From Shigella phage MK-13: a stretch of 64,000 nt of DNA. The notes under the pieces were generated by a model. That model did not search any database. It worked only from the letters and a program-made list of their open reading frames with translations, and had not been told where the DNA came from. Positions 4,361-58,696 of this stretch are shown piece by piece; within the stretch, counting starts at the first letter, position 1; every line of letters starts with the position of its first letter. Both the position numbers and the translations under genes were made by a program. The DNA lies in the sequence record MK509462, one strand, 5' to 3'.

Positions 4361-7255
4361 ATGGCTAATAAACCAACACAGCCTGTTTTCCCTCTCGGTC
4401 TGGTGGCTGAAGAGCAGTCTACTTTGGCTGGTATCCTCAACACGGGTACGATTGAGCATGGACCAGATGCTGTCCTGACTTTACCCGAGGGTAATGCCAG
4501 TGCAGGTCTCCCGTCTTCTGTTCGCTACAATGCCGACTCCGACGAATTTGAGGGCTTCTACGAAAATGGTGGATGGTTGCCGCTGGGTGGCGGTGGTATC
4601 CGCTGGGAAGCCCTTCCGCATGCCTCTACGGCAACGCTCACTGAAGGGCGAGGCTATCTGGTAGACAACTCCACAGGCGTCTCTACGGTGGTGTTCCCTT
4701 CCCCTACGCGCATTGGCGATTCTGTTACAGTCTGTGACTTGTATGGAAAGTTCTCCCTGTATCCCCTGACCATTGACCCAAATGGTCGCCCAATGTATGG
4801 CTCTGTAGAGCCTATGACGCTCTCCACCGACAGCGTATCTGCGACCTTTACCTGGTCTGGTGACGCGCGTGGCTGGATTGTGACTGCTGGCGTCGGCCTT
4901 GGGCAGGGGCGCGTGTATAGCCGCACGATCTTCACTGAAACCGTTTCGGTAGACACCGCTCAAGTTACTCTGACAACGCAGCCGTCGATTGTTGATGTGT
5001 ATGTTGACGGCAAGCGCCTGCTGGAATCAAAGTATTCCCTCAATGGTTTCAATGTCGACTTCAGTCCATCAATCCCATCAGGTTCCGAGCTGCAGGTCAT
5101 CCAATACGTCCCGATCCAGTTAGGCAATGGCTCCGGTGGTTCCGGCGGCGGTACGGTTATCACTTGGATCTACAATAGTGGATCAGCTGCGGGTGGTGAA
5201 ACCGAGATCGAGTTGGACGTGGATGCCGAAGATGTTTCTGAGATCTTTATCGATGGATCCCGCCAGCAAAAAGGTCTGGGCTTCACTTATGACTCCGTTA
5301 CGAAGATCATCACGCTGGCCGACGAACTCGAAGCTGGTGATGAAGTTGTTGTCGTCATCAATGGCGACCCAACCCTGTACAATCAGATCGACCGTACACC
5401 AAACGAAGTGGCGCGTTCCGTGAACGTGCCGAATTCTCAGGTTATTTTGTCGTCCGATACCATCACCAAACTGGACGGAAAGACGGTTATCTATGATGTG
5501 GTGGCGCAAAAGATTTGGAGCTTACCTTCTGGTATCCCGACAGGTTCTTCTGTTGTATCTGTGAGTGGGAGCACTCTGACATATGCACCAGGGAATGTTG
5601 TTGTTTCTTTGCTCTTGCCGACTTCTGAAAGTTTGGTCGTTTTCCAAGAATTATTAGAGTCTAATGCGGGGGTTGGGTCTATTGGTGGCGTTGCTGTGGA
5701 ATTAGGAGACCGAAACTCGCTAAACTCGAACCAGACCGTGCTCGGGCGTATTGTGGCCAGCAAAACTCTTTCTGGTATTTACAACAAATATTCAGTTGTT
5801 CCCAACACAGGTAAAGTTGCTGACGGTGTGGTATTAATTGACCGCCTGGACGGTAATCAACTTGAAATTCAATTTGAAGACTATATTGATGTTCGCGCTT
5901 TCATGTTCGGCGCAATGACAGATCAGGAAACATTACAGGCAGCATTGGATTATGCGGATAGTGTTTCCGGACATTGCGTAATTGGCATCACACCCAAAAA
6001 CAAAAATGGAGACCCTTGGGTGTTCACGCATCTGCATATTGGTTCTAAAACTATTGTTAAGGGTGCAGGCGGCTGGTTGAAATTCGCAGATAATGTTTGT
6101 AATGATGCGACCAAAGCATATTATCTTGTCGAGAACTTTGATGCACAGGATACCCATTTAATAGATTTGTATATAGACGGAAACCAAGCAAGCAACACAT
6201 TGTATGCTGTAGCCGACATCTTAACGTTCGGTGGGAATCGATGCTCTATCACCAACTGTAAGCTCGTGAATGCCCCCGACTCAGGTCTGATGTTTGCGAC
6301 TACCAAAAACTGCTGGGTGAATGGTCTTTATGTAGAAAACACGCGCGACCTTGGGATCTACTTATCTGCAAGTGTGGCAGGCGGTACTCGTAACTGCGCA
6401 ATGTCCAACCTGGTGTTGCGCGACTGCGCTCAAGGGGCTATGGGTTTCAAACGCTACGTTGCCGACATTGTTGTGGATAATGTTGTAGCCACCAACTGTG
6501 GTAATGGAATCACCTTTGAAGGTTTTGAAGTTGTGACGCCGGGTATGAACCCATCCAATATCACTATGAGCAATATACGTCTGCGTGATATTGGATTTGG
6601 TTATCGGTCTGTTTCAGCGGCAGAGCGAGCTTTAAGTTTCGATTATGCTCGCGGCATCCGTATTAGCAACCTCAGCGTTCAGAACTGTTCTGGTGTCGGT
6701 ATCTTCTTCAGCACTAACACAAGTACTGGTATTTACATTAATGGCGCTAACTTAACTGGATATGCTGCTAACCCACAAATCGCGAGTGGTGTCCCAAACA
6801 ACGATGGTATTCAGTGTAATGGTGCTTCTGGTTTTGAACTGATTAATGTGAACTTGGAAGGGTTCGCAAGATACGCAGCTTGGTTCCTGAGCTGTAGTGG
6901 CGGCAGCGTGGTCGGTGGTCGTTGGACTAATACCCAGGCTAGTGGATATAATGCATACAACGGCGCACGTGTAAATGCAGCCTGTAGTTTCACTAAGTTT
7001 TCGCCTGAGTTTATTAGTGGGGCGAGCGGAACAGACCTAGAATGGTTTAATGGTGCGACTGGAATTACCAAAGACACGATACTGAACAATGCTACTGGCC
7101 CAGCAAAATATGGGTATGTTGTCGTCTCTGGTCCTACGCCTGTGGCTACAGTAACCCCCCGTTTTATTGGGCAGGAAGTCTGGAGTGCAGGTGCGAGTTC
7201 CTGGTGGAAATCACATGGCTTAACCTCCTCAGACTGGAAACAGATGTCAAATTGA
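4361..7255 (+). CDS. tailspike protein A (gp10-like N-terminal region plus right-handed beta-helix depolymerase-like domain)
   Basis: ORF 4331..7255; start moved to ATG 4361 downstream of promoter/hairpin. C-terminal half shows serial N-C-x-G / asparagine-ladder repeats (NCKLVNAPDSG, NCAMSNLVLRDCAQG, NCGNGITFEG, NCSGVGIFF) typical of pectate-lyase-fold tailspikes. Confidence 0.65.
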   Translation: MANKPTQPVFPLGLVAEEQSTLAGILNTGTIEHGPDAVLTLPEGNASAGLPSSVRYNADSDEFEGFYENGGWLPLGGGGIRWEALPHASTATLTEGRGYLVDNSTGVSTVVFPSPTRIGDSVTVCDLYGKFSLYPLTIDPNGRPMYGSVEPMTLSTDSVSATFTWSGDARGWIVTAGVGLGQGRVYSRTIFTETVSVDTAQVTLTTQPSIVDVYVDGKRLLESKYSLNGFNVDFSPSIPSGSELQVIQYVPIQLGNGSGGSGGGTVITWIYNSGSAAGGETEIELDVDAEDVSEIFIDGSRQQKGLGFTYDSVTKIITLADELEAGDEVVVVINGDPTLYNQIDRTPNEVARSVNVPNSQVILSSDTITKLDGKTVIYDVVAQKIWSLPSGIPTGSSVVSVSGSTLTYAPGNVVVSLLLPTSESLVVFQELLESNAGVGSIGGVAVELGDRNSLNSNQTVLGRIVASKTLSGIYNKYSVVPNTGKVADGVVLIDRLDGNQLEIQFEDYIDVRAFMFGAMTDQETLQAALDYADSVSGHCVIGITPKNKNGDPWVFTHLHIGSKTIVKGAGGWLKFADNVCNDATKAYYLVENFDAQDTHLIDLYIDGNQASNTLYAVADILTFGGNRCSITNCKLVNAPDSGLMFATTKNCWVNGLYVENTRDLGIYLSASVAGGTRNCAMSNLVLRDCAQGAMGFKRYVADIVVDNVVATNCGNGITFEGFEVVTPGMNPSNITMSNIRLRDIGFGYRSVSAAERALSFDYARGIRISNLSVQNCSGVGIFFSTNTSTGIYINGANLTGYAANPQIASGVPNNDGIQCNGASGFELINVNLEGFARYAAWFLSCSGGSVVGGRWTNTQASGYNAYNGARVNAACSFTKFSPEFISGASGTDLEWFNGATGITKDTILNNATGPAKYGYVVVSGPTPVATVTPRFIGQEVWSAGASSWWKSHGLTSSDWKQMSN

Positions 7256-7295
7256 TCCGATTCTGTCTAGAGATGTCTAGCAACTTCTATCGATA

Positions 7296-7313
7296 AAGCC
7301 CCTTCAGGGGCTT
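7296..7313 (+). terminator. hairpin aagcccc-ttca-ggggctt (weak terminator, no clear U-tract)
   Basis: Perfect 7-bp GC-rich stem between tailspike A and B. Confidence 0.35.
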
Positions 7314-7336
7314 CGTGAGAACAACAGGAGATTCAC

Positions 7337-9439
7337 ATGAATCCGCAATTCAATCAGCCGAAAGGTTCAACGGCCAAAGAAATCAACAAAAACCCGCGTG
7401 AATTATGGCGTCGGACTTTGTCGGAATTGGGTCTTAATTTGGTCGAAGGTAGTTTTGAAGACGGTGCTACTGTGGCGACTGCAACTGACGTCGTGTGGCA
7501 TATCAATGGCGCCCAGTGTTACACCTGGGGTGGGTCTTTACCCAAGACTGTAGACAAAAACTCAACACCGCAATCAACTGGTGGGATATCCGGAGAAGCT
7601 TGGAAGAAATACGATGAAACTTCTCAGGTTACGACACCAGGATACTATGGCGGAACTTGTTTCCCCACGGAAAATAATCTCTCCTTGGCCGTCGGGGATA
7701 TTATCCCGTCAGGAGTAATGTTCGTCAGAATTGATGGTAATCTGATGATGATGAGTTCTTCTCTGACGGAACCCGTGACTGTCACCAGTTTTGATCAGAC
7801 TGTGATCAATGGCTTGCATGAGTTGTATCCAGTATCATTCTTTAACGAAGTGATCACGGGATGGAAGATTGCCCAGAATGACGCACAGCTTACGCGTTTA
7901 CTCCCAAAGGCAGGGAATATTTACATTGGTTATTCTCCAGTGAAAGTTGAAGGAATCTTCATTATTCAGGGAGATATCCGACTCAAGCCATTGCTGCCAA
8001 AAGTAACCGTTGATTCACGTCAGTTCTGGTTGAGATCGCCGCGCGCCTGGAACGAAACAAACCAGGAATATGACTACACCGCGTACGATATTCGTATTGT
8101 CGGTAACTTCCTGTTTGACTTCTATAGGCAAGATGCTTCCTTTGACCCAGGCGTTGGACTAGCTATGCAGTCCGCTGGAACTCTGGAGCTTTCCGGGTGT
8201 GAGTTACAAGGTGCGTGGAGAAGCAACGTAACCATGGATTATGGGCGCTGGTCTATTGCAGACAACTTGTATTCACATGATTGTGGCAGGGGGCAGATTC
8301 AAAATCCAGATGGTAGCAACCGCAATGGTATGGCTATTATTGTTGGTAATGCGACAGAAGCACATATCCATCATATCCGCACCAGAACCACTTGGGCATC
8401 CTCTGTCTTTGTTGATTCTTACCGCCCTGGACGAACGCTTAACGTGATGATCCATGACGTTAGTATTAACGGTTCTGGTGGTAACGGCCTGCGCCTTCAA
8501 TCTGACGATCTTGTTACCGGTGTTGGCGGCGGGCAGGGTACTGCAATTACTCGTGTAAACATCAGCGGCGTAACAATTAAAAACTGTGAATCGCATGGCA
8601 TCCGCGCAAACTTCACCAACGGAAGCGTTACGGGCGTATACATTGAGTCATGTAACGCGGGTATTGCCATTGAGGGTTCTAGTGATGTCACGTATGACAA
8701 CATCACCATCAGGAATTGCTCACAGCCAATCCTCTGTCGATATTATCCGGTAGTCTGCACACGCCTGCGATTTAGTAATATCTTAATATCAGGCCACACA
8801 GATTGGGCTGTGTTCTTTTTGCGTAAGGATGGCTCCTCTCACACGGTAAATCTAGGTGATATTGAATTCGACGGGTTGACAATCCACTGCACACAACCTG
8901 GTTCTAAAGCTGTTATGATTAACTGCGGGTCGAACGCAACAGCTACTTCCGACATCACTATGAAGAACGTGCGTATTGTTGGCGCATTTCCTGATACAGA
9001 CGGAACAGCACTCTGTCAGATTCATAATGCACGACATATTGAAGTAGATAACTGGAACATCAGAGGTGTTAACGGGCTTCCTAGTTCTTATTTGTATGCG
9101 CAAGCATCTCAGAGCTTGAACGTGCATCGCCTGGTTGGCGTTCAACCGTTTGGTACTGTTGATCGTCCTATTGAGTGCGTTGGCGTGGCTGGTCACGTAA
9201 ACATTGTGAATTGTTCTGTTCCTGTAACCACGAACGGAATATTATATACTTCAACTCCTGCATCCCGTTACGAAGAAGGGAACCAGTTTTACAATAGCGC
9301 TCAACCACAACAATTCCCGTTCACCAACGCTGGGCAGTTGCGTGGTGGTGATGTGAACACGTTAACAACCACGCAACTGGCAAACATAGTGGCTACGCTG
9401 ATTAACGATATTAGCCTGGGTAAATTCGTAATCAGATAA
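7337..9439 (+). CDS. tailspike protein B (conserved MNPQFNQPKGS N-terminal head-binding module plus beta-helix)
   Basis: 700 aa; N-terminus MNPQFNQPKGS...YTWGGSLPK shared with tailspike D; beta-helix repeats (VNISGVTIKNCESHGIRAN, YIESCNAGIAIEG, ITIRNCSQP). Confidence 0.7.
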   Translation: MNPQFNQPKGSTAKEINKNPRELWRRTLSELGLNLVEGSFEDGATVATATDVVWHINGAQCYTWGGSLPKTVDKNSTPQSTGGISGEAWKKYDETSQVTTPGYYGGTCFPTENNLSLAVGDIIPSGVMFVRIDGNLMMMSSSLTEPVTVTSFDQTVINGLHELYPVSFFNEVITGWKIAQNDAQLTRLLPKAGNIYIGYSPVKVEGIFIIQGDIRLKPLLPKVTVDSRQFWLRSPRAWNETNQEYDYTAYDIRIVGNFLFDFYRQDASFDPGVGLAMQSAGTLELSGCELQGAWRSNVTMDYGRWSIADNLYSHDCGRGQIQNPDGSNRNGMAIIVGNATEAHIHHIRTRTTWASSVFVDSYRPGRTLNVMIHDVSINGSGGNGLRLQSDDLVTGVGGGQGTAITRVNISGVTIKNCESHGIRANFTNGSVTGVYIESCNAGIAIEGSSDVTYDNITIRNCSQPILCRYYPVVCTRLRFSNILISGHTDWAVFFLRKDGSSHTVNLGDIEFDGLTIHCTQPGSKAVMINCGSNATATSDITMKNVRIVGAFPDTDGTALCQIHNARHIEVDNWNIRGVNGLPSSYLYAQASQSLNVHRLVGVQPFGTVDRPIECVGVAGHVNIVNCSVPVTTNGILYTSTPASRYEEGNQFYNSAQPQQFPFTNAGQLRGGDVNTLTTTQLANIVATLINDISLGKFVIR

Positions 9440-33998: not shown

Positions 33999-34226
33999 AT
34001 GTACCTGAAAAAGATCGTGAAGAAGCCGAAAGGTGATGTTGTCGAAGTATGTCTCATTGAGGCTTACGTTGACTCCTGGAACAACGAGCAGCGTTACTTC
34101 ATGGTCGACACGATGGTGTATGTGCCAGCCTCTCACCTGAACCGTGATTTCATCACAACCGAAAATGTCGTCCGCTGGGAGATTGCAACGCAGTCCGATA
34201 TCGACGAACATCCCATTTTGAACTGA
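33999..34226 (+). CDS. hypothetical protein
   Basis: ORF 33969..34226; internal ATG 33999 preferred (follows hairpin acgggg..ccccgt). Confidence 0.35.
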   Translation: MYLKKIVKKPKGDVVEVCLIEAYVDSWNNEQRYFMVDTMVYVPASHLNRDFITTENVVRWEIATQSDIDEHPILN

Positions 34227-34238
34227 AGGATCTATATC

Positions 34239-34682
34239 ATGTGTGATAAGAATTTCATTTTCATTAGTCCCGCCAAGAAACAGTTCTTCCGTAGCTCCGT
34301 TGGGGACAAGGTGGAAGGTTTCCGTAAACTCAAAGATTATCGCCTGGCATGCGGTGATGTTGATTTTCAGAGCTTCGACAATGATCGCCAGGATTTGAAC
34401 GATGAGGGTTGGACAGAAGTTCCATCCCCACAGTTTATCGACGTCAAGCTGTACTACATGAAGGACAGTGGGAAGTATTATTCAGAAGGTGTGATCAAAA
34501 TCAACCGTGGGGAGGCCGAGGCCGAACCTGCTAAGTCCTGGATGGAGACTATGGATAAAATCCGCTATCTGCTTGACTCAGGCAATTTGCCTGGTTTGGT
34601 TAAAGGTGCCCGGTACGAGGTCTTCGTGACCGGAGAAGGGCATCCAGGTGGGTATCCGGCGGCATTCCACATTAACAACTGA
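34239..34682 (+). CDS. hypothetical protein
   Basis: 147-aa ORF; preceded by conserved CCCATTTTGAACTGAAGGATCTATATC-ATG cassette. Confidence 0.45.
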   Translation: MCDKNFIFISPAKKQFFRSSVGDKVEGFRKLKDYRLACGDVDFQSFDNDRQDLNDEGWTEVPSPQFIDVKLYYMKDSGKYYSEGVIKINRGEAEAEPAKSWMETMDKIRYLLDSGNLPGLVKGARYEVFVTGEGHPGGYPAAFHINN

Positions 34683-35295: not shown

Positions 35296-35300
35296 CAAAC

Positions 35301-35318: not shown

Positions 35319-35350
35319 CTGTCTCCCATTTGAATTGAAGGAACTATATC

Positions 35351-35632
35351 ATGACAACTAAAGCGCAATTGATCGAAGCCCTGAATGCTGGCGCTATCAC
35401 CCACTCTCGTTACAAAGTAACATTGCAGCAATTTGTTGGTATGGCCGTCGGAAATGCCAAATTCACCCCAATCTCTTCCCCTGAAAAATTTCCAGTTAAG
35501 GCCAGCCAGCCGAAGTTTTCGGTAGTTTGCCAGGGTGAAGAAATCACCGCTCTGTGGGAATATGATAACATGTATTTTGAATGTTCTGACGGCGTGTTAG
35601 CATACCATGTGGAAGGCGAGCATTTGTTCTAA
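35351..35632 (+). CDS. hypothetical protein
   Basis: 93-aa ORF preceded by CCCATTTGAATTGAAGGAACTATATC-ATG. Confidence 0.45.
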   Translation: MTTKAQLIEALNAGAITHSRYKVTLQQFVGMAVGNAKFTPISSPEKFPVKASQPKFSVVCQGEEITALWEYDNMYFECSDGVLAYHVEGEHLF

Positions 35633-45699: not shown

Positions 45700-46920
45700 A
45701 TGAAAGATAAAGCCCTGGACGTCCCGTACTGCGGTGTCCGTGAAGAAAAGATAAAGTCGGCCAAACCGGTTCTCAGTCCGACCCATACCCGCCTTTCTTA
45801 CGAATGGATGAGCGAGCGCTATAAGATCCACGTCAAGAAGGACGTCCAGCGTCTTCCTGCTCCTTGGACGAATAATCCTATACTACGGCAGGTCAAGTTC
45901 TGTAACGTCCGGAGAGAGCACGACAGGCAGTCTCTTAACCTGATCAACAACATCGTCAACAACGATGCTCTGGGTATGGCAGACAAGATGTTTAACTGCG
46001 TGCTGTTCCGCATGTTCAACCTCTGGGATCCGATCCAGGCTATCGGCGGCGCGATGGCGATCAAAGAATTCGCCAAGATCAACCTTGACGCAACCCGCGA
46101 ACGACTTCAGAAGTTCGAGGCCGACGGCGGCAAGGTGTTCACCAATGCCTTCAACACAGGCGGCCTGAAGCAATGCCTGGCTTTCCCTGAGCTGGTTGTC
46201 AACCACAAAGAGCAGCGCTTCGGTGGGATGATGGTGAACCTGATCTGTAAGGACGGTTCGACCCAGAACATGGATTATAAGGAAGCCAAGGCTATTGCTG
46301 AAGCAGAGCCGGACTTCTACACCATAGAAGGCTGGGAGCCGTACATGCCAATGCGTGTCATCCGTTCCCTGAAGGCATTCGTCAACAAGTATCCAAATTA
46401 CTTCCATGACCTACTGCGCCTTGGTACTCCTCTGGAAGTATACCAGCGCATGTACGACGACATCGAAGGTCTTGGTCCATTCCTGGCCTATCAGATCTGG
46501 GTTGATTTCACGTACATGCCTGGTTATCCGTTCAGTGAGAACCACTTCACGATCGCCGGACCGGGCTGTCGCGCAGGTATTGATCTGCTGTTCCTGAACA
46601 AGGACGGCATGACTCACGAAGAATGCATATTCTGGCTACGGGATAATCAGGACGCAGTATACTCCCAATATGGGTATGTTCGCGAGCAATTCTGGTCGGC
46701 CGAAGAGCCTGTAGACCAATGCATGAACGTTATGCAGCTGGAGAACATGTTCTGTGAACTGAGCAAGTACACTCGCTGTGTTGAGGCGGTTGGGCGCGGT
46801 GAAAAACCTCGGGGCAAGGTCAGCTATGACGGCGGTGGGGAATACAAAAAGCGCTGTGATGAAGTCGTGCTCAAACGTGGTTCCGTCAATTTGCTGGACC
46901 GTTTGAAGAAACCTGAATAA
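45700..46920 (+). CDS. hypothetical protein (406 aa, enzyme-sized)
   Basis: Long clean ORF with AGAGGA-like RBS; no motif recognised by eye. Confidence 0.45.
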   Translation: MKDKALDVPYCGVREEKIKSAKPVLSPTHTRLSYEWMSERYKIHVKKDVQRLPAPWTNNPILRQVKFCNVRREHDRQSLNLINNIVNNDALGMADKMFNCVLFRMFNLWDPIQAIGGAMAIKEFAKINLDATRERLQKFEADGGKVFTNAFNTGGLKQCLAFPELVVNHKEQRFGGMMVNLICKDGSTQNMDYKEAKAIAEAEPDFYTIEGWEPYMPMRVIRSLKAFVNKYPNYFHDLLRLGTPLEVYQRMYDDIEGLGPFLAYQIWVDFTYMPGYPFSENHFTIAGPGCRAGIDLLFLNKDGMTHEECIFWLRDNQDAVYSQYGYVREQFWSAEEPVDQCMNVMQLENMFCELSKYTRCVEAVGRGEKPRGKVSYDGGGEYKKRCDEVVLKRGSVNLLDRLKKPE

Positions 46921-47035
46921 AGATTCCCTTTACTTCATTCTTCAATAACTTTTTTCAACGTATTATTGACCTCACTTAAACGAAGCGCCCTGGCAAACGG
47001 GGCGCACATTTGAACTGAAACAGGAAGACTACATC

Positions 47036-49054
47036 ATGTCAGAATTTAAGCCCTTCGCAGTAGCCGTAAACAATAATGTGCTGGCCATGTCAGCAACTGG
47101 TCTGTTCATGACCAACATCGATAAAGATGCTCTGTGGGATCTGTACCTGAACTCTTTCCCTGCTGGCACCAACCCGCTCTACCGTGAGCGCACCGAGCAC
47201 GACTGCACCTGCTGTAAACAATTCATCCGTAACATCGGCGGTGTGGTGACCATCGACGCCGACCTGAACGTGATCTCTATCTGGGATAACATTCAGCTGG
47301 GTAACGAATACGACGTTGTCGCTGCGGCGCTGTCTGCGTATGTCAAGCAACACGCAATCGTCGACGTGTACTTCAACGATACCAAGAAAGTCGGTGTTGA
47401 GTCGAATCACGAAATGAAAGACGGTAATGTCCGCACCTACAACCACTTCCACACCGACCTGCTGCCCAGCTATGTTCTGCGGGCTGATGCCATCGCTTCT
47501 AAGAAGGGTGAAATCCGCCAGGCGATTGAAGTGTTTGAGCGCGGCCTGCGTGAACTGTCTCTGGAATCGGCCGAAATCGTTCTGGAACTGATTGATCAGA
47601 ATTCTCTGTATCGTGGTGAAGAGCACAAAGCTGCTGTGCAGGCGTTCGTGACGAGCAAGACCATGTACGAACAAACTGCAGAAGAGAAACGCGCTCTGTG
47701 GGCTTGGCGTACTGGCTACCGTGCAAACGGACACACCCCTCACGGCATCCGCAATACCGTGATTGGCTCTCTGTTGGTAGACCTCAATGAAGGTCGGGAT
47801 CTGGAAACCGCCGTGAAGTCCTTTGAAGCCAAAGTCGCTCCGACGAACTACAAGCGCCCAACCGCGCTGGTCACGAAGTCCATGATTGAAAACGCGCAGA
47901 AAGAAGTCGAAGCGCTGGGTCTGACTGATTCACTGGGTCGCCGTTATGCCGTGTATGACGATCTGACCATCAACAACGTTTTGTTTGCCGACCTGGCAGC
48001 ACAGAAGAAGATGGACCCGTTTGCTCAGCTGGCGTCTGAAGTGAAGACTCCGACCAAGTCCCTGGACAAGGTTGAAGAGATCACCATCGACGACTTCCTG
48101 ACCAACGTGTTGCCAAAGGCGCATTCCCTGGAAGTGCTGGTTGAGAACTCTCACACTGGCAACCTGATGTCCCTGATCGCCCCGGCTACGGTGGGTGCTC
48201 CTAACCTGTTCAAGTGGAACAACGGCTTCAGCTGGTCATACAATGGCGAAGTGGCCGACTCCATCAAAGAGCGCGTGAAGACAGCAGGCGGCAACGTCGA
48301 CAGCTTCCTCCGTGTGTCGCTGGCGTGGCATAACAACGACGACCTGGATCTGAGCCTGAACGATCCTCTTCACAACCACGTGTATTTCAACAACCGTCGT
48401 TCGGCAACTGGTGCAACCCTGGACATCGACATGAACGGTATGGACGGTATTGACCCGAACCGCCGTCCGGTGGAGAACATCTTCTTCAGCGATGAACGCA
48501 AGCTGCGTGACGGGAACTATGAGTTCTATGTCACCAACTACAGCAAGCGCGAAACCTGCGATGTGGGCTTCGAAATCGAAGTTGAATACAAAGGCCAGAC
48601 CAAGCGCTTCTCGCATCCTGGTCTGGGTAACAAAGACCGCACGTTGGCTGTTGTGGTTCAGGTACGCGCTGGTCAGGTGGTCGACATCAGTTCTACCCTG
48701 AAAGACGACGCTCGCTCTCAGGAAATCTGGGGCATCAAGACCTCCGTCTTCCAGAAGGTACAGCTGGTTCTGAACTCACCAAACCATTGGGACGGCGAGC
48801 AGACGGGCAACAAGCACGTGTTCTTCATCCTGGAAGGTTGTGCTAACCCTGTCGGCACCCGTGGCTTCTACAACGAATATCTGAAGCCGGAACTTGATAA
48901 ACACCGCAAGGTTTTTGAAATGTTAGGTGGTAAGATTAAAGTACAGCCAAGCACTGAGCAGCTGTCCGGTCTGGGCTTCTCTACCACCCAACGCAACCAC
49001 GTGTTCGTGAAGGTGAGCGGCTCGTTCAACCGCACTGTGAAAGTTGTGTTCTAA
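47036..49054 (+). CDS. hypothetical protein (672 aa)
   Basis: Preceded by hairpin + ACATTTGAACTGAAACAGGAAGACTACATC-ATG cassette; no motif recognised. Confidence 0.5.
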   Translation: MSEFKPFAVAVNNNVLAMSATGLFMTNIDKDALWDLYLNSFPAGTNPLYRERTEHDCTCCKQFIRNIGGVVTIDADLNVISIWDNIQLGNEYDVVAAALSAYVKQHAIVDVYFNDTKKVGVESNHEMKDGNVRTYNHFHTDLLPSYVLRADAIASKKGEIRQAIEVFERGLRELSLESAEIVLELIDQNSLYRGEEHKAAVQAFVTSKTMYEQTAEEKRALWAWRTGYRANGHTPHGIRNTVIGSLLVDLNEGRDLETAVKSFEAKVAPTNYKRPTALVTKSMIENAQKEVEALGLTDSLGRRYAVYDDLTINNVLFADLAAQKKMDPFAQLASEVKTPTKSLDKVEEITIDDFLTNVLPKAHSLEVLVENSHTGNLMSLIAPATVGAPNLFKWNNGFSWSYNGEVADSIKERVKTAGGNVDSFLRVSLAWHNNDDLDLSLNDPLHNHVYFNNRRSATGATLDIDMNGMDGIDPNRRPVENIFFSDERKLRDGNYEFYVTNYSKRETCDVGFEIEVEYKGQTKRFSHPGLGNKDRTLAVVVQVRAGQVVDISSTLKDDARSQEIWGIKTSVFQKVQLVLNSPNHWDGEQTGNKHVFFILEGCANPVGTRGFYNEYLKPELDKHRKVFEMLGGKIKVQPSTEQLSGLGFSTTQRNHVFVKVSGSFNRTVKVVF

Positions 49055-50810: not shown

Positions 50811-51665
50811 ATGTTTCGTTTGAAATTGAACGACCAAGATGTGTTCTACAAACACTTCACCTTCCCAGGTGGTGAGGAACATATCAAGATCCAAAAGTCT
50901 GGTATCCCTATCGGCCACGTCCAGAACGTGGCGATTGATGCTCACATCAAATCATCAGCCGACTTCGTTGAGCTGGCACTGCTGGTTAACGCCGTGCGCG
51001 GCCTGGGTAACGTGGACCGTCTGACGACCTTCCATGCGTATATCCCTTACTTCCCGTATGCTCGCCAGGACCGCCATTGCGACTTCGGCGAGCCTCTGTC
51101 CGTGAAGTGGGCGGCTGAGTTCATCAATAGCATGAACTTTGACCGCGTGGCGATCAAAGACCCTCACAGCCATGTTGTGTCTTCTCTTATCAACAACGTC
51201 CATGTGGTCCCGCAAGATTACATCGTGCGGCAGTATCTGGGCTGGTTCATCCGTGGGAACAACGCTGTGTTGGTAGCCCCTGACGGCGGCGCGGCTAAGA
51301 AGACCGAAGCCCTCAGCCTGTCTCTGGATGGCGTTCCTGTTGTCTACGGACACAAGAACCGTGACGCCAAGACTGGTGAGATCATTGGGGTGAGTATTAC
51401 AACCCCTGAACTGATCAAAGACCGTTATCTGGTGGTGGTCGATGATATCTGCGACGGTGGGCGCACGTTCGTTGAGTTAGGCAAAGAGCTTCAGAAGCAC
51501 AAGCCCAAACACATGACGCTCTTCGTTACCCATGGCATCTTCAGCAAAGGGCTTTCCGTGTTCGACGGGATCTACGATGCTGTGTATGCCGACACTGTCT
51601 GGTGGGAGAATATCACCGCCGACGGTCTTCCTTTCAAAACTGAAAATACAGGACGTGTAAAATGA
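50811..51665 (+). CDS. prs: ribose-phosphate pyrophosphokinase (PRPP synthetase, Prs)
   Basis: AYIPYFPYARQDRH matches Prs signature IPYFGYARQDR; PRPP-binding loop VVVDDICDGGRT matches VDDMIDTGGT. Confidence 0.75.
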   Translation: MFRLKLNDQDVFYKHFTFPGGEEHIKIQKSGIPIGHVQNVAIDAHIKSSADFVELALLVNAVRGLGNVDRLTTFHAYIPYFPYARQDRHCDFGEPLSVKWAAEFINSMNFDRVAIKDPHSHVVSSLINNVHVVPQDYIVRQYLGWFIRGNNAVLVAPDGGAAKKTEALSLSLDGVPVVYGHKNRDAKTGEIIGVSITTPELIKDRYLVVVDDICDGGRTFVELGKELQKHKPKHMTLFVTHGIFSKGLSVFDGIYDAVYADTVWWENITADGLPFKTENTGRVK

Positions 51666-53326
51666 GCATGCGCCACTTAGACCCAATCCATGCAATCGAC
51701 TTCTACAAATCAGGGCACATCTATCAGTTCCCTGAAGGCAGCGAGCTGGTGTTCTCCAACGGAACTCCGCGCTCCAACAAACTGTTCAACTCTCACCTGC
51801 CGAAGAACGGCGTGGTGGTCTGGGGCATCCAGGGTTTCATGACTTGGTTCCATGAACTGTTTGACGAAGCATTCTTCCAGCGCCCGAAGGCCAAGGTGTT
51901 GAAGAAGTATGCCCGTCGCATGAACAAAGTCCTGGGTCCAGGCCGCGTCGGCACAGAGCATATTGAAGCCCTGCATGACCTCGGCTACCTGCCTATCGAA
52001 GTCCGCGCGCTGCCTGAAGGCACCATGTGCCCGTATGGCGTTCCGGTGTATGTGATGTTCAACACCCTGCCGGAGTTCTACTGGCTGACCAACTATCTGG
52101 AGACTGTGTTCAGCTCTGAGATCTGGAAGCCGATGACGAACGCCACTATCGCTCTGCATTACAAGGCACTGATGGTGAAAGCTGCCCTCGCTACAGGCGT
52201 GTCACCGGACCATTGGTTCATCGACTACCAAGGCCACGACTTCTCCTTCCGTGGCATGAGCGGGTGGCATGACGCGGCGTCTTCCGGTTCCGGTCATCTG
52301 GTGTTCTTCAAAGGCACCGATACCAACCCTGCCCTGGACTTCGTTGAAGAGTATTATGGCGCAGACATCGACGAAGACTATGTCGTTGCTGGCTCCGTTG
52401 CGGCTACAGAACACGCCGTGATGTGTATGGGTACGAAGGATGGTGAATTCGAAACCTTCCGCCGCCTGGTGCAGGACGTGTATCCTGATGGCATCGTCAG
52501 CATCGTGTCTGATGCGTGGGATTACTGGCAGGTCATCGACGACTATCTCCCTCGCCTGAAAGATATTATCATGGCGCGTAACGGTAAAGTCGTGATCCGC
52601 CCTGACTCGGGCGACCCAGTTCATATCGTCGGCGGCTACCGCATTGAGGGGTTCAAAGACCGCGCCACGCTGAACATCAGCGGCGTGTCTAGCAGCACTG
52701 AAGTCATTCACATCGAAGAGACGAACACCTATCACCTGATCACAGGCGAAGGCACGATCAACTCTCTGATGGCAGACGACCGTAATATCATCAGCCGTTC
52801 TGAAGCAGTCGGCTCTATCCAGCGACTGTGGGAGATCTTTGGCGGTACTCAAACTGAAACTGGCCACTTCCTGTTGGACGAACACATCGGTCTGATCTAC
52901 GGTGACTCCATCACCCTGGCGCGTGAAGACCAGATCTTTAGCCGTCTGGCTGGCCGGAACTTCGCTTCCATCAACGTGGTGTTCGGTATCGGTTCCTACA
53001 CCTACCAGATGAACACCCGTGACAGTACTGGCACGGCGGTGAAAGCAACGGCTGGTAAGGTGAACGGTGAATTCCGTGAGATCTTCAAAGAGCCGAAGAC
53101 CGACAAAGGCGGGACTAAAAAGTCTGCGCGTGGTTTCCTTAAAGTCATTAAAGACTCTCAGGGTAAACTAGTGTTGGTTGACGGTATCACCTTTGATCAG
53201 GTGCAAGACGCCGACAACCAGCACCAGCTGGTGTATCGTGATGGCAAGTTCTTCAACACTCAAACTCTGGAAGATGCGCGTGTCCGCGCCGCTCCTCTGG
53301 TAGCAGAACTGGCATCACAAATCTGA
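51662..53326 (+). CDS. nadV: nicotinamide phosphoribosyltransferase (NadV / NAMPT)
   Basis: HDFSFRGMSG...GHLVFFKGTDT...GSVAATEHAV corresponds to NAMPT HDFGYRGVSS...AHLVNFKGTDT...SVPAAEHST; ATGA overlap with prs. Confidence 0.8.
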   Translation: MSMRHLDPIHAIDFYKSGHIYQFPEGSELVFSNGTPRSNKLFNSHLPKNGVVVWGIQGFMTWFHELFDEAFFQRPKAKVLKKYARRMNKVLGPGRVGTEHIEALHDLGYLPIEVRALPEGTMCPYGVPVYVMFNTLPEFYWLTNYLETVFSSEIWKPMTNATIALHYKALMVKAALATGVSPDHWFIDYQGHDFSFRGMSGWHDAASSGSGHLVFFKGTDTNPALDFVEEYYGADIDEDYVVAGSVAATEHAVMCMGTKDGEFETFRRLVQDVYPDGIVSIVSDAWDYWQVIDDYLPRLKDIIMARNGKVVIRPDSGDPVHIVGGYRIEGFKDRATLNISGVSSSTEVIHIEETNTYHLITGEGTINSLMADDRNIISRSEAVGSIQRLWEIFGGTQTETGHFLLDEHIGLIYGDSITLAREDQIFSRLAGRNFASINVVFGIGSYTYQMNTRDSTGTAVKATAGKVNGEFREIFKEPKTDKGGTKKSARGFLKVIKDSQGKLVLVDGITFDQVQDADNQHQLVYRDGKFFNTQTLEDARVRAAPLVAELASQI

Positions 53327-53729: not shown

Positions 53730-53900
53730 ATGGCCAAACCATTTGAACGTGCGGGCGTCGACAACCTCGACCGCCGCTTTAGCCCATCGGAAACGCTGAT
53801 GAGTCAGATTGAACTCAATCGCGATTTCCTGGAACACATGCTGGTCAAGCCGGAAGGTGAGGCCGAAGACAACCCTGAAGAAGGCAATAACGATGATTGA
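53730..53900 (+). CDS. hypothetical small acidic protein
   Basis: ORF 53673..53900; ATG 53730 after AGGTGG; coupled to neighbours by overlapping stops/starts. Confidence 0.3.
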   Translation: MAKPFERAGVDNLDRRFSPSETLMSQIELNRDFLEHMLVKPEGEAEDNPEEGNNDD

Positions 53901-56094
53901 ATCATTAGAATTTAAGAATGCGGTTGAGACTGCTGCCCCGTCCAACCATGTAATCGTTGTGGACATCTCTTATTCGATGTACCGTGCGCTCCCTGAAGTC
54001 CGTAAGCATCTGAAGGAGAACCTGCCTTCTCTGGTGAAACCGGAAGACACTGTGAGTGTTCTGTATTTCTCCTCCAAAGGCGACTTTGGCACAGTGTTTG
54101 CTGGTCGTCAAATCAGCGCGGCTTCCGACCTGAGTGAGATGAACAAACTGATCGACCGCTTCCTACAACCGTCCGGATGCACCGGATTCGTGGAACCTCT
54201 GGGTCTGGCTGTAGACACCGCTCGTAGTCTGAAGAAGCCTGGTTATGTCAACAACCTGGCATTCATGACCGACGGCTATGACAACTGCTGGCGCTCCAAT
54301 GAAATCCTGGCCGTCGCCGAAACCCTGCCATTTGCTTTCGATAACATTACATTTATCGAATACGGCTGGTACTGTAACCGCGAACTGCTGGCTCTGATGT
54401 CTGAGCGCTCCGGTGCGACCCACGTGTTTGCCGAAGGTCAGGTTGAGTATCAGGCCGAGCTGGAAACCGTGCTGAAGTCTTCAGTGCCGAAGGTGGTTGT
54501 TGATGTGCCTCTGCTATACACCCACGCCATCTATGTTGAAAACGGCGTGGCAACTGTTCTGGCAGTACAGGCAGACTCAGAGCATCCCGTTGGCCACGTG
54601 AGCATCCCTGAGAGCGTCACGAAGCTGTGGGTCGTCAATCCTAACATGATCGACCAGCTTGATGCGCTGGCGGACATCCAGGCGGCATACGTGCTGGCGT
54701 TCTATGGCGTACACATCATGGACGCCGATTTGGTATGGGCTGCCCTGAAGAAAACGGGTGACGTTCGCTTCATCAAACAGTACAGCAACTGCTTCACCAA
54801 GCAGGACTACTCCAACATCAAGATCGATCTGGTTCAGGCTATTGTTGACGACCAGCTGCGCGGCGTTGACGGTATTGACTATGACCTGGTTCCAGCTGAA
54901 GATGCGACGACCGTCGTTGACGTGCTGACGTATCTGGCTGAAGCTGGCGTGTGTGTTGCTACCAAACATCCTATGTTCTCCTACAAGAGCATCGGTCGCG
55001 GTACGGCTCAGAAACTGGACGATACCGAAGACAAGCTGGCAGAACAGATCGCGAACGCCGAGTCCAAAGAAGAGCGCAAAGCCCTGGCTCTCAAGCTGGC
55101 CGAGCACGAAGAGTGGAACCCGACGTTCGAACCTAACAACGATCTGGGTGTTGTGCCAATCAGCGATTTGGTCTATAACTCCGAACGCCCTAATATCAGT
55201 GTACGCACTGTCCAGCACGGCACTGTGGCGATTCCGGAGTTCGTGCAGAAGAAGTTCGGTCTGCCTGAAGAACTGGATACTTTCCAATGGCGCAACTACA
55301 CCATCGTCAAAGACGGCATCATCAACGTGAAGACTCTGCCGTTCAGGGCTGATGTTGAAGTTGTAACCAATCTGTGCCAGATGGGCGTCCATGTGTTCGG
55401 TGGTCCGGAAGTGTTTGTCCTGAACCTGGAAAGCGTACCGCTGGTCAACCGCGCCATGGTCAAGAACATCAGTGCTGCTCAGTTCTTTGCGGATAATGTC
55501 CGTCTGGAAGCCCTGAAAGGCAAGCAGAAGGTGCTGAAGTTCTTCCGTGATGAACTGGTTGGCAAAGGTAACGCCAAAGGCCTGGCAGTACAGTACGGTG
55601 CTGAGGCGGCCGAGTTCCTGTCCTTCTACGGCATCCGTGATTACGGCTTCTCACCGAAGACCGAACTGAAGGACTCCACGGATGTCTACATGAGCCGTGA
55701 GCTGAACGTTAAGATCGCTGGAGCGTCTTCTCTGCCTAGCATCGCGGCAGTACAGAAGAAGATTGCCGAGAACAAGAAACTCAATGCGGGTGACTTGTTC
55801 ATCGCCAATGCTCTGAAGGAATACGAAGCATTCGTGAAGTCTCCTGCGATCACTGCCGTGCCTGAAGCCGTACAGAAACAGCTGATCGAAAACTGGATCG
55901 ACGCTGCTGCCAAGGCGGCCATCACTGAAGTCCGCGCCCTGAACAAGACGCTGTCTAAAGTGGTGTATGGTATCGTTGCTGGTCACGGCTGGTTCACCGA
56001 CCTCGACCTGGAAGAGTCCACCATGGAAGTTGAAGTGGATGGTGTGAAGTACAAGGTCACTGCCGAACTGGCAGAGAAAGAGATCAAAATCTAA
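53893..56094 (+). CDS. von Willebrand factor A (VWA) domain protein
   Basis: ORF 53809..56094; ATG 53893 (ATGATTGA overlap). N-terminal VIVVDISYSM is a MIDAS DxSxS motif in a beta-strand context; about 730 aa. Confidence 0.55.
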   Translation: MIESLEFKNAVETAAPSNHVIVVDISYSMYRALPEVRKHLKENLPSLVKPEDTVSVLYFSSKGDFGTVFAGRQISAASDLSEMNKLIDRFLQPSGCTGFVEPLGLAVDTARSLKKPGYVNNLAFMTDGYDNCWRSNEILAVAETLPFAFDNITFIEYGWYCNRELLALMSERSGATHVFAEGQVEYQAELETVLKSSVPKVVVDVPLLYTHAIYVENGVATVLAVQADSEHPVGHVSIPESVTKLWVVNPNMIDQLDALADIQAAYVLAFYGVHIMDADLVWAALKKTGDVRFIKQYSNCFTKQDYSNIKIDLVQAIVDDQLRGVDGIDYDLVPAEDATTVVDVLTYLAEAGVCVATKHPMFSYKSIGRGTAQKLDDTEDKLAEQIANAESKEERKALALKLAEHEEWNPTFEPNNDLGVVPISDLVYNSERPNISVRTVQHGTVAIPEFVQKKFGLPEELDTFQWRNYTIVKDGIINVKTLPFRADVEVVTNLCQMGVHVFGGPEVFVLNLESVPLVNRAMVKNISAAQFFADNVRLEALKGKQKVLKFFRDELVGKGNAKGLAVQYGAEAAEFLSFYGIRDYGFSPKTELKDSTDVYMSRELNVKIAGASSLPSIAAVQKKIAENKKLNAGDLFIANALKEYEAFVKSPAITAVPEAVQKQLIENWIDAAAKAAITEVRALNKTLSKVVYGIVAGHGWFTDLDLEESTMEVEVDGVKYKVTAELAEKEIKI

Positions 56095-56136: not shown

Positions 56137-56463
56137 ATGAGCAGTAAACCAACATATGTTGAAGTCATGCGTCATCTGGCTCAGTACGCCACTGACAATC
56201 TGAACTTAGATGCAGACGAGGTGAAATACCCAAACGTCAAGAAAATGATTGACGGTGAAGTTGCCACAGACGATGCGTTGGATAAGTTTGCAGGCCTCCG
56301 CACCAAGAAGGATCTCGGCGGTGATGAACTGGACGCTATCGAAATTGTAATGGACCTCGAAGAAGAGTTTCAGGTCGAAATCGACGACGGTTGGCTGGGT
56401 AGTAAAGGCGATGACCCGACCATGGGTGAACTCGCTGAACTCGTGGTTGCCCTGCGCAAATAA
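56137..56463 (+). CDS. acyl carrier protein homologue with Ser-to-Glu substitution at the phosphopantetheine site
   Basis: DLGGDELDAIEIVMDLEEEFQVEIDDG aligns with E. coli ACP [27 protein letters not shown]; the DSL serine is GAA (Glu) at 56326..56328. Confidence 0.6.
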   Translation: MSSKPTYVEVMRHLAQYATDNLNLDADEVKYPNVKKMIDGEVATDDALDKFAGLRTKKDLGGDELDAIEIVMDLEEEFQVEIDDGWLGSKGDDPTMGELAELVVALRK

Positions 56464-56469
56464 CAGAAG

Positions 56470-56500
56470 TCCCCAACGTTTGTTGGGGATTTTTACTTTT
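56470..56500 (+). terminator. rho-independent terminator (ccccaac-gttt-gttgggg + ATTTTTACTTTT)
   Basis: 7-bp stem, T-rich tail after ACP-like gene. Confidence 0.65.
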
Positions 56501-56586
56501 AGGGGTTTACTTCCTCTAAGGAATATCCTATTATTCAATAACTGGCGAACGATGGGGTTCACCAGGTTGAAAGGTAAGATTATATC

Positions 56587-56826
56587 ATGAAGAACAAAAT
56601 GGTCGAAACTTCAGTAGAGATTGATCGCAATTGGGGCTTGCTCCGCGCTAAAGGGTTCCGCCGTGTGTATGCGACCAAAGAGGTATATGCCCAGCGCCGT
56701 GACGTTATCATCAGCAAGAAGGGCAAAGAGTGGGTTGCTGAAGAAGTCGATGTTGAGACAGGCGTCGTCGGCAAGGTGAAAGCCAAGGCCGCGATCCTCT
56801 TCGCTCTTCTGAAGCACATCAGCTAA
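56587..56826 (+). CDS. hypothetical protein
   Basis: 79 aa; AAGGTAAG RBS. Confidence 0.4.
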   Translation: MKNKMVETSVEIDRNWGLLRAKGFRRVYATKEVYAQRRDVIISKKGKEWVAEEVDVETGVVGKVKAKAAILFALLKHIS

Positions 56827-56840
56827 TTCTATAAACTCCG

Positions 56841-56859
56841 GCGGGGTATGATTACCCCG
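56841..56859 (+). repeat. palindromic hairpin gcggggtatgattaccccg (copy 1; copy 2 at 57399..57420)
   Basis: Identical 19-nt hairpin recurs 560 nt downstream; each is followed by (C)TATTTGAA...ACTATATC-ATG. Confidence 0.6.
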
Positions 56860-56885
56860 TCTATTTGAAATGCAGGAACTATATC

Positions 56886-57392
56886 ATGACCGATCAACAA
56901 ATTCAAGATTTATTTTACCTCGCCCATGATAAGTCCCACATCATGCGCCCCGGTACTGTTTCCCCTGCCGTCCGTGATCTGGTGCAAGAATTACGCGAAC
57001 CACAGACGACCACACTTTATCGCGGGCTGCCTAAGGAGGACGTTGCGCGTTTAGAGATGTTGTTTGAACGAGGCGACATGTTCCAGACATGGGATTCTTG
57101 TCTTAGCTTCAGTGAACTGAAGCATGTGGCCAAACAATTTTCTAAATCGTACGGAACCAAAGCTGTTGCCCGCATTTGTTACAAACATCGAAACGGACTC
57201 CCGGAGGGGCTTAATGTCTATGGTTCTCTAGAAAAATTTGTGAACAAAGGCGATGAATCAGAAATGGATATGCTGGACTTGGCGTCCATGGAGAAAGAAT
57301 GGATATTCTGCCAGCCTCGCGTCATACCAGTTTCAAGAAAAATGGCAACAGACGGGACGATGGTTTTTACCGTATCACTTGTTACCCTATAA
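56886..57392 (+). CDS. hypothetical protein; candidate ADP-ribosyltransferase (speculative R / S-x-S / E-x-E pattern)
   Basis: ORF 56865..57392, ATG 56886. LYRG (Arg), SCLSFS, and EKEW arranged in the order seen in R-S-E ADP-ribosyltransferases such as T4 Alt/Mod; weak evidence. Confidence 0.4.
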   Translation: MTDQQIQDLFYLAHDKSHIMRPGTVSPAVRDLVQELREPQTTTLYRGLPKEDVARLEMLFERGDMFQTWDSCLSFSELKHVAKQFSKSYGTKAVARICYKHRNGLPEGLNVYGSLEKFVNKGDESEMDMLDLASMEKEWIFCQPRVIPVSRKMATDGTMVFTVSLVTL

Positions 57393-57398
57393 ACCCAC

Positions 57399-57420
57399 GG
57401 CGGGGTATGATTACCCCGCC
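57399..57420 (+). repeat. palindromic hairpin ggcggggtatgattaccccgcc (copy 2)
   Basis: See 56841..56859. Confidence 0.6.
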
Positions 57421-57444
57421 CATTTGAAACCAAGAGACTATATC

Positions 57445-57819
57445 ATGAAAAAGTTAATCCTCGCTGTTGCCCTGCTGGGTGCTTCCTTTGCTGCTGTTTC
57501 CGCCCCTCCTGTCATCACCGGAGTGTCTACCAACGGCGTTTATGCTTTCAAGGCGTATGGCCAAGACCTCGTTCTGTATAAGAACGGGAAGATGATTGAG
57601 CGCTGTGTAGCGGATGGTGTAAACCGTGGGATCGACAATCAGGGCAGTCCGTTCATCCTGGACTTCTATGCCTGCTCCAACGGGACGAAGACCTTTGGTG
57701 TCAAGACCTTCGGCAACGTCGCCGACGGCGGCTGGGGCTTCATGATCGAAACCCGCAACCGCCGCCCGGTCACGACCATTGAAGAAGAGTTCTTGATCTC
57801 TGTCGGGGGCACGTTATGA
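57445..57819 (+). CDS. secreted protein (cleavable signal peptide)
   Basis: ORF 57253..57819 truncated to ATG 57445 (after hairpin/cassette); MKKLILAVALLGASFAAVSA signal peptide. Confidence 0.45.
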   Translation: MKKLILAVALLGASFAAVSAPPVITGVSTNGVYAFKAYGQDLVLYKNGKMIERCVADGVNRGIDNQGSPFILDFYACSNGTKTFGVKTFGNVADGGWGFMIETRNRRPVTTIEEEFLISVGGTL

Positions 57820-58103: not shown

Positions 58104-58213
58104 TGGTGGACATTGAATTTTGGGGTTGGCTTATTGGATGTTCATTGGGCGTCTTGCTCGTTTTGTTGTGTGAATATCTCGGAGCCGTACTGTGTAAGAC
58201 ATTTCACGCCTAA
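58103..58213 (+). CDS. small hydrophobic peptide (36 aa), not in ORF track
   Basis: ATG 58103 overlapping upstream stop (GTGATGG); WGWLIGCSLGVLLVLLCEYLGAVLC single TM segment. Confidence 0.25.
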   Translation: MVDIEFWGWLIGCSLGVLLVLLCEYLGAVLCKTFHA

Positions 58214-58246
58214 CTAAGGGATAATCCATATCCCGAGGTGAATCTC

Positions 58247-58696
58247 ATGTTCATGTCTTCCTTCATAGACTGGTTGAACATTATCAACGGCCTGAGGATT
58301 CCTGTCGGAAACCTCGGGCTTTCTCGTTCTTCTATGCCACAGATCGACGATGACAAGCAGCAGGCGTTCCATGACTACCTGGAGGAACTTGGCATCACCA
58401 TCGACGCTGGCCAGGTTCCTATCAAATCCCTCCGTCTCACCCAGAACGAAATCAACAAGATGAAGGTCTGGAAGATCATGAAGAACATCAGAAACAAGAA
58501 GCCCATGGGTCGGGTTTGGGTGTCTTCTGATAACTATGTGGTCGACGGCTCGCACCGCTATGTCGCCGCCCTGAACATGGATGACCGTCAGCGCATCAAG
58601 GTCTACAAAGTGGACATGCCAGCGATGGAGTTCGTCAAGGTCGCCAAGCAGTTCAAGGGTGTGAAGTTCAGAACCGTGTCTGACGCTCGCTTCTGA
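58247..58696 (+). CDS. ParB-like nuclease domain protein (tentative)
   Basis: ORF 58238..58696 (GTG), ATG 58247 after GAGGTG; VVDGSHRYVAAL resembles the ParB/sulfiredoxin DGxHR core. Confidence 0.4.
   Translation: MFMSSFIDWLNIINGLRIPVGNLGLSRSSMPQIDDDKQQAFHDYLEELGITIDAGQVPIKSLRLTQNEINKMKVWKIMKNIRNKKPMGRVWVSSDNYVVDGSHRYVAALNMDDRQRIKVYKVDMPAMEFVKVAKQFKGVKFRTVSDARF

Follow-up and report, generated by a model that had tools for sequence, protein, structure and literature searches.

The window analysed here is the whole 64,000-nt stretch of Shigella phage MK-13 (MK509462), read on one strand from 5′ to 3′. On its plus strand, at 56886..57392, lies a coding sequence with an ATG start and a TAA stop, whose 168-aa product we assign as a Mod-family R-S-ExE mono-ADP-ribosyltransferase (ART). 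The genes prs (50811-51665) and nadV (51662-53326) are located about 3.5 kb upstream, as the initial annotation of this DNA had described. Between nadV and the ART cassette is a conserved pair of genes, encoding a vWFA-domain protein (53809-56094; phrog_2426; its real start is probably near 53893) and then an acyl carrier protein (56137-56463). Downstream of the ART, a 152-aa protein (58238-58696) is called a ‘cytidyltransferase’ in one record, matches phrog_2859 and weakly matches a ParB-like PHROG, while a published HHpred table lists a Kuttervirus protein, its apparent positional equivalent, as ParB-N-like; these annotations conflict. In Shigella phage ChubbyThor, a NUMOD3-motif (homing-endonuclease-like) gene of about 860 bp (L004 8811-9641) sits between the 152-aa gene and an i-spanin-like gene, and it is absent from the window (at about 58667-58691). 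Farther upstream, the window encodes a 5-hmdU DNA kinase (45700-46920; PF18723, E = 3e-81), which belongs to the pathway for thymidine hypermodification that typifies Vi01-like phages.

The ChubbyThor GenBank record begins its ART orthologue at an upstream TTG (window position 56865), yielding a 175-aa product (L004 6980-7507). We instead take the ATG, and thus the 168-aa product, as the true start because an AGGA ribosome-binding site (56874-56877) is positioned 8 nt 5′ of it and because MTDQQIQ is the N-terminus of every orthologue. Three motifs can be read directly from the translation, in the order reported by the initial annotation. The first, Y45-R46-G47 (57018..57026, plus strand), carries the predicted NAD+-binding Arg on β1, the ‘R’ of R-S-E, and aligns with LYRG in T4 ModB. 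The second is an STS-type motif on β2, S71-C-L-S74-F-S76 (57096..57113, plus strand), which aligns with STS in Vis and ExoT and with SFT in ModB. The third is an ExE motif at the start of β5, E136-K-E138 (57291..57299, plus strand), aligning with EQEW in ModB and E-x-E in Vis; the hydrophobic residues W-I-F follow directly, and the E-K-E-W-I-F span covers 57291-57308. E138 is the predicted catalytic Glu and E136 the predicted determinant of arginine specificity.

Of the 119 stop-to-stop frames in the window that reach 120 aa, only the ART reading frame has an ordered and spaced [YFW]RG...SxS/T...ExE-hydrophobic pattern. Among 52 homologues with 20-93% identity to the query, no variation occurs at G47 or E138, and conservation is at least 90% at L9, H14, K16, L44, R46, S74, E77, A82, F85, E136 and W139. 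Because R46, S74 and E136 belong to this second group and G47 and E138 never vary, the motifs are not a chance occurrence.

Sequence profiles place the protein in a known family. A search of PHROGs returned a single match, phrog_832 ‘RNA polymerase ADP-ribosylase’ (E = 7.8e-15, residues 2-159), and T4 ModA and ModB match the same part of that profile. We also used a family HMM derived from the alignment of the 52 homologues, which includes no T4 sequence; it gave T4 ModB 81.6 bits and ModA 62.1 bits, with LYRG, SF[ST] and ExEW aligned. Profile alignment of the ten closest orthologues with ModB or ModA (hhalign) gave E-values of about 1e-4 each. A profile search further reached a T4-like phage protein named modB (E = 1.5e-17), tagged PF26816, and this precomputed Pfam tag is common to T4-like modB proteins and some of the query's orthologues. 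Against PDB sequences, the family profile matched the NAD+-arginine ART Vis (E = 9.4e-5), ExoT (1.5e-3), ExoS, the Listeria ART Lmo0066 and Tre1, and in every case R, STS and ExE line up. The family profile was needed for this step: a single-sequence phmmer search of the PDB gave only a chance match to citrate synthase (E = 1.1). The ART had no match in NCBIfam or in a Pfam-A copy that lacks PF26816, a negative that is uninformative because T4 ModA and ModB were missed as well. The residue aligned with R46, R73 of ModB, is catalytically required (PMC10468400). The significant similarity to ModA and ModB extends over the whole catalytic domain, and very probably the 168-aa protein is an ADP-ribosyltransferase and a relative of both.

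The predicted structure agrees with this assignment. An AlphaFold2 model calculated from the 52-sequence alignment has a mean pLDDT of 94 and a pTM of 0.88, and shows the split β-sheet core with an NAD+ cleft that defines the predicted fold as that of the R-S-E clade. In the model, R46 lies in strand 44-47, which puts the aromatic-R-G motif on β1; S74 lies in strand 72-76, ahead of a helix (79-88), which puts S-x-S/T on β2; and E138 is the first residue of strand 138-142, which puts E/Q-x-E at the start of β5. A Foldseek search of the PDB gave 50 significant matches, all of them R-S-E ARTs. In a viral structure library, leaving aside one unnamed entry and the phage bering orthologue, the best matches were mostly T4-like ModA/ModB-type ADP-ribosylases (TM 0.68-0.72, E about 1e-10). 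The initial annotation had seen a likeness to R-S-E ARTs at the level of motifs and suggested profile/profile comparison and structure prediction as checks; the likeness is now supported by phrog_832, the family HMM, the PDB profile matches and an ART fold, and the profile/profile alignments agree.

The initial annotation had described the protein as Alt/Mod-type, and the two halves of that label fared differently. The protein is Mod-type and not Alt-type, because the family HMM that detects ModB and ModA gives T4 Alt no more than 0.8 bits (E = 0.037, database of three sequences). Membership in the Alt/VIP2 group is rejected on the same score and on the protein's length of 168 aa. The query is a bare catalytic domain, 30-40 residues shorter than ModA and ModB, and this small single-domain protein is encoded away from the head and portal genes in the window. 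Scanning the window with the Mod-family profile revealed no second Mod-type ART. In the portion of the Sajous1 virion proteome supplement (PMC10892097) covered by a term search, there was no ADP-ribosyltransferase entry, and ‘adp’ occurred only inside unrelated peptides. An ART-like protein, gp17 of Kuttervirus FrontPhageNews, is reported to be encoded near a tail-completion gene and to have an HHpred value of 0.98 to a cholera-toxin-type ART (PMC10892097 Table S2); it appears to be a different protein from the Mod-type ART, in another region of the genome.

At the nucleotide level, the window region shares 97% identity with ChubbyThor (Ackermannviridae, Agtrevirus), and the ART itself is 100% identical to ChubbyThor gp155. 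Proteins of many Kuttervirus phages, including Cba120, Det7 and FEC14, are 94-98% identical to it. The surrounding region matches 275 phage records, mostly Ackermannviridae of Salmonella, Klebsiella, Escherichia and Dickeya. A tblastn search found the ART in 76 records, of which 11 are distant Erwinia jumbo phages, leaving about 65 carriers among some 275 related phage records. When 1.84 billion representative proteins were searched with a HMMER profile, 57 relatives were identified at E < 1e-3, mostly 160-215 aa long, with a few present as domains within larger proteins. In these cases a homologue of the compact ART forms the N- or C-terminal domain of a much larger protein, as in P0013 (763 aa), P0025 (614 aa), P0032, P0056 and P0059 (978 aa), and such proteins may be polyvalent or virion-delivered. 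The annotation itself is not new: RefSeq and PHROGs already give the label, and the name ‘RNA polymerase ADP-ribosylase’ is attached to the orthologue in several RefSeq and Pharokka-annotated records. Iyer et al. 2022 (PMC9503650) count the ‘Mod family of the RSE clade’ among the commonest viral ARTs. Our literature searches found no experimental work on any Ackermannviridae ART, and no description of the compact subfamily considered next or of its cassette behaviour. What is added here is an Ackermannviridae member of a known ART family and that cassette behaviour; the earlier interpretation is supported except for its Alt affiliation and its link to NAD+ salvage.

Within the Mod family, the query belongs to a compact subfamily with two sequence hallmarks. 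An N-terminal HDKxH motif, H14-D-K16-S-H18 (56925..56939, plus strand), includes two of the residues that are at least 90% conserved, H14 and K16. In a regular-expression survey of 78 homologues, most subfamily members carried HDKxH some 30 residues N-terminal to the catalytic Arg, and their STS motif took the form SFSE. Neither feature is present in T4 ModA and ModB or in the T4-like ModB group, where SFTT or SAS is found instead. The subfamily comprises about 57 clusters at 50% identity and is spread across diverse phages. In C3/VIP2-type ARTs, helices N-terminal to β1 contribute to the NAD+ pocket. By analogy, a role for HDKxH in binding NAD+ or the acceptor is plausible.

The ART gene is bounded by two direct repeats of about 59 nt, both on the plus strand. 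The upstream copy (56830..56888) contains a hairpin (56840-56861), the ribosome-binding site and the ART start codon, with an RNA folding energy of -16.8 kcal/mol (z = -2.4). The downstream copy (57388..57447) overlaps the ART stop codon, contains a hairpin at 57399-57420, folds with -19.6 kcal/mol (z = -4.1) and ends at the next gene's start codon (57445). In order, the repeat consists of CTATAAAC, a 9-bp GC-rich hairpin (GGCGGGGTA-TGAT-TACCCCGYC), ATTTGAAA, the ribosome-binding site and CTATATC-ATG. Its 16-nt core has exactly two copies in the window, compared to an expectation of zero. A leader of the form (A/T)TTTGAA-N-(A)GGA-(A/T)CTATATC-ATG recurs before several start codons (34216-34241, 35328-35353, 47013-47038, 56863-56888 and 57422-57447; five matches versus zero expected), and a GC-rich hairpin also precedes it at 35300. 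This leader may serve the phage as a common signal for translation initiation or for processing.

Agtrevirus SKML-39 carries a single repeat at this position (L003 2330-2390) and no ART gene. Alignment shows that its repeat is a hybrid, with a left half from the upstream copy and a right half from the downstream copy, and blastn places a clean deletion boundary from 56889 to 57387. Because one left/right hybrid repeat stands where the ART is absent, the SKML-39 locus is the exact empty site of the ART cassette. SKML-39 does contain the 79-aa gene that lies immediately upstream within the exchanged block (56587..56826, plus strand; phrog_804), and that gene is therefore not an obligatory partner of the ART. 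Comparison with Kuttervirus FEC14 gave nucleotide identities of 94% for the 79-aa gene and 95.5% for the ART, while the flanking genes are only 69-81% identical. High identity extends from about 56450 to about 57440 (FEC14 L005 ~6560-7560) and stops at the downstream repeat. A block of about 1 kb at 94-96% identity between flanks at 69-81% argues for a recent lateral exchange between Aglimvirinae and Cvivirinae. Taken from sequence comparison, these observations indicate that the ART is an accessory module lying between two hairpin repeats, which has moved between Ackermannviridae subfamilies.

This arrangement resembles the promoter-early stem-loop (PeSL) repeats that mediate modular gene shuffling in T4-type phages (PMC2839356, PMC4122927). 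As with PeSLs, short intergenic repeats with a GC-rich stem-loop flank a dispensable, non-essential gene, whose presence or absence differs between close relatives at the repeat; a close relative has a hybrid empty site, and there is lateral exchange. The differences are that the ART repeat holds a hairpin and a translation-initiation region and belongs to another phage family. PeSLs contain a strong sigma-70-like early promoter, but a promoter scan found no plus-strand -35/-10 pair inside either ART repeat.

The start of a transcription unit may lie farther upstream. A terminator-like hairpin (56470-56500, plus strand), TCCCCAAC-GTTT-GTTGGGGA followed by TTTTTACTTTT, lies 3′ of the acyl-carrier-protein gene. 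A weak sigma-70-like promoter, TTTACT-17-TATTAT (56506-56534, plus strand; 9/12 matches), then precedes the 79-aa gene and the ART. Together, 56470..56534 is the putative start of a transcription unit and the putative left edge of the exchanged block. In the scanned stretch, the only plus-strand promoter sites were 56506-56534 and 58196-58225. No T4-like late promoter (TATAAATA) occurs in the window, and CTATAAAY occurs in it only within the two repeats, at a frequency not above chance. The ART is probably made early in infection, as suggested by the weak promoter match at 56506-56534. Our literature searches found no relevant Ackermannviridae transcriptome.

We consider it likely that the protein is an active, single-domain Mod-family ART, made in the infected cell, that ADP-ribosylates host transcription or translation proteins and is carried as an accessory module. 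Its homology, fold and conserved, correctly placed catalytic residues lead us to infer activity. The enzyme would be synthesized inside the infected cell, and not packaged in the virion as Alt is. NAD+ would be bound in the cleft formed by R46 (β1), S74 (β2) and E138 (β5), and nicotinamide would be released via an oxacarbenium intermediate, as summarised for the R-S-E ART mechanism (PMC9503650). The ADP-ribose would then be moved onto a side chain, most likely that of an arginine, in one or several host proteins. Arginine is the predicted acceptor because the motif is ExE and not QxE, and the ART that matches best in structure is likewise specific for arginine. QxE is the form present in Asn-specific C3 enzymes.

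By analogy with ModA and ModB, the targets would most likely be parts of the transcription or translation machinery, and their modification would contribute to host takeover. ModA ADP-ribosylates the RNA polymerase alpha subunit (R265), and ModB modifies S1, EF-Tu and trigger factor. Because these two paralogues differ in target and the query is about 18-25% identical to them, the target is not readable from sequence. A distant homologue is located among replication and early-type genes on an unrelated phage contig. With its patchy, cassette-like distribution, the gene looks more like an accessory or counter-defence gene than one for a core takeover function.

Several other functions would be compatible with some of these data. 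The same chemistry could serve counter-defence, with the ART inactivating a host immunity or toxin protein and the gene being kept only where that defence is met. Its patchy presence among close relatives, its organisation as a cassette whose site is empty in SKML-39 and the recent exchange between subfamilies would all be expected of such a gene, and anti-defence phage ARTs exist, such as AcrIF11 (PMC12421852). However, the query has no likeness in sequence or fold that is specific to a known anti-defence ART, its nearest relatives are ModA and ModB, and no defence-related gene was seen adjoining it in the window. We regard a counter-defence function as unlikely.

The absence of HDKxH and SFSE from ModA and ModB means that substrate or chemistry may differ from theirs. 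At its most far-reaching, this would make the HDKxH/SFSE subfamily a functionally distinct Mod-type branch with its own acceptor, for example a defence protein or an RNA-linked substrate, that spreads as a hairpin-bounded cassette, a proposal to which we assign only a small chance. If it were true, the spread of the cassette between Ackermannviridae genera would constitute a PeSL-like shuffling system outside T4-type phages.

ModB performs RNAylation, with rS1 and rL2 as substrates (PMC10468400), and the query could likewise prefer NAD-capped RNAs and attach RNA chains to host proteins. The family profile favours ModB over ModA (81.6 versus 62.1 bits), and ExEW is shared with ModB. Yet identity to ModB is low, and RNAylation has no known sequence signature by which it could be discriminated. 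It is also compatible with protein modification by a Mod-family ART and not exclusive of it. Altogether, we judge an RNAylating enzyme to be quite improbable.

The initial annotation had pointed to the neighbouring NAD+ salvage genes, which would suggest that prs-nadV is functionally coupled to the ART and supplies its substrate. All three genes are on the same strand within 6 kb, and the arrangement recurs in a 61%-identical metagenomic relative. However, the ART of Kuttervirus FEC14 is 95.8% identical and keeps the local synteny, yet prs-nadV is missing from the syntenic site; Agtrevirus SKML-39 shows the reverse, prs-nadV with no ART. Because the two are distributed independently in these phages, their adjacency is not a functional signal, and the proposed coupling is largely refuted; we reject it as very unlikely. 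Four unrelated genes also separate prs-nadV from the ART, and phage NAMPT and RPPK have been attributed to the countering of NAD+-depleting defences (PMC11721090), with a presence that varies among such phages (PMC11721090, PMC10892097). Finally, it is hardly credible that the protein does not modify proteins at all, whether as an NAD+ glycohydrolase, a Scabin/pierisin-type nucleic-acid-targeting ART or an inactive relic.

A host-protein-modifying Mod-type ART would have several consequences. Ackermannviridae can carry a predicted, T4-Mod-like host-modifying enzyme as an optional and laterally exchanged module. Phages of this family are widely used as candidates for biocontrol and therapy against Salmonella, E. 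coli O157 and Shigella. The enzyme would offer a second tractable model, outside T4, for host reprogramming by phage ARTs, and ChubbyThor-like and SKML-39-like phages form a natural plus/minus pair for probing its contribution.

Among named systems, Vis of Vibrio splendidus, C3, ExoS/T, HopU1 and Tre1 are secreted bacterial toxins or effectors with 8-18% identity to the query, which, unlike them, has no secretion or targeting domain. T4 Alt is a 682-aa protein with a long N-terminal part that is packaged in the virion and injected with the DNA, whereas the query's gene is not beside head genes. T4 ModA shares the query's family and fold but has EQEV in place of ExEW and SAS in place of SFS, and its profile score is below that of ModB. 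The query differs from T4 ModB (207 aa) by lacking about 25 N-terminal residues, by having a shorter β4-β5 insert, and by carrying HDKxH and SFSE where ModB has MEAK and SFTT. It is also a single gene in Ackermannviridae, while T4, of the Straboviridae, has a modA-modB tandem. Even at an identity of about 18%, both are single-domain R-S-ExE phage ARTs in which LYRG, SF[ST] and E-x-E-W-[IM] correspond position by position, and models of ModB homologues superpose on the query at a TM of about 0.68.
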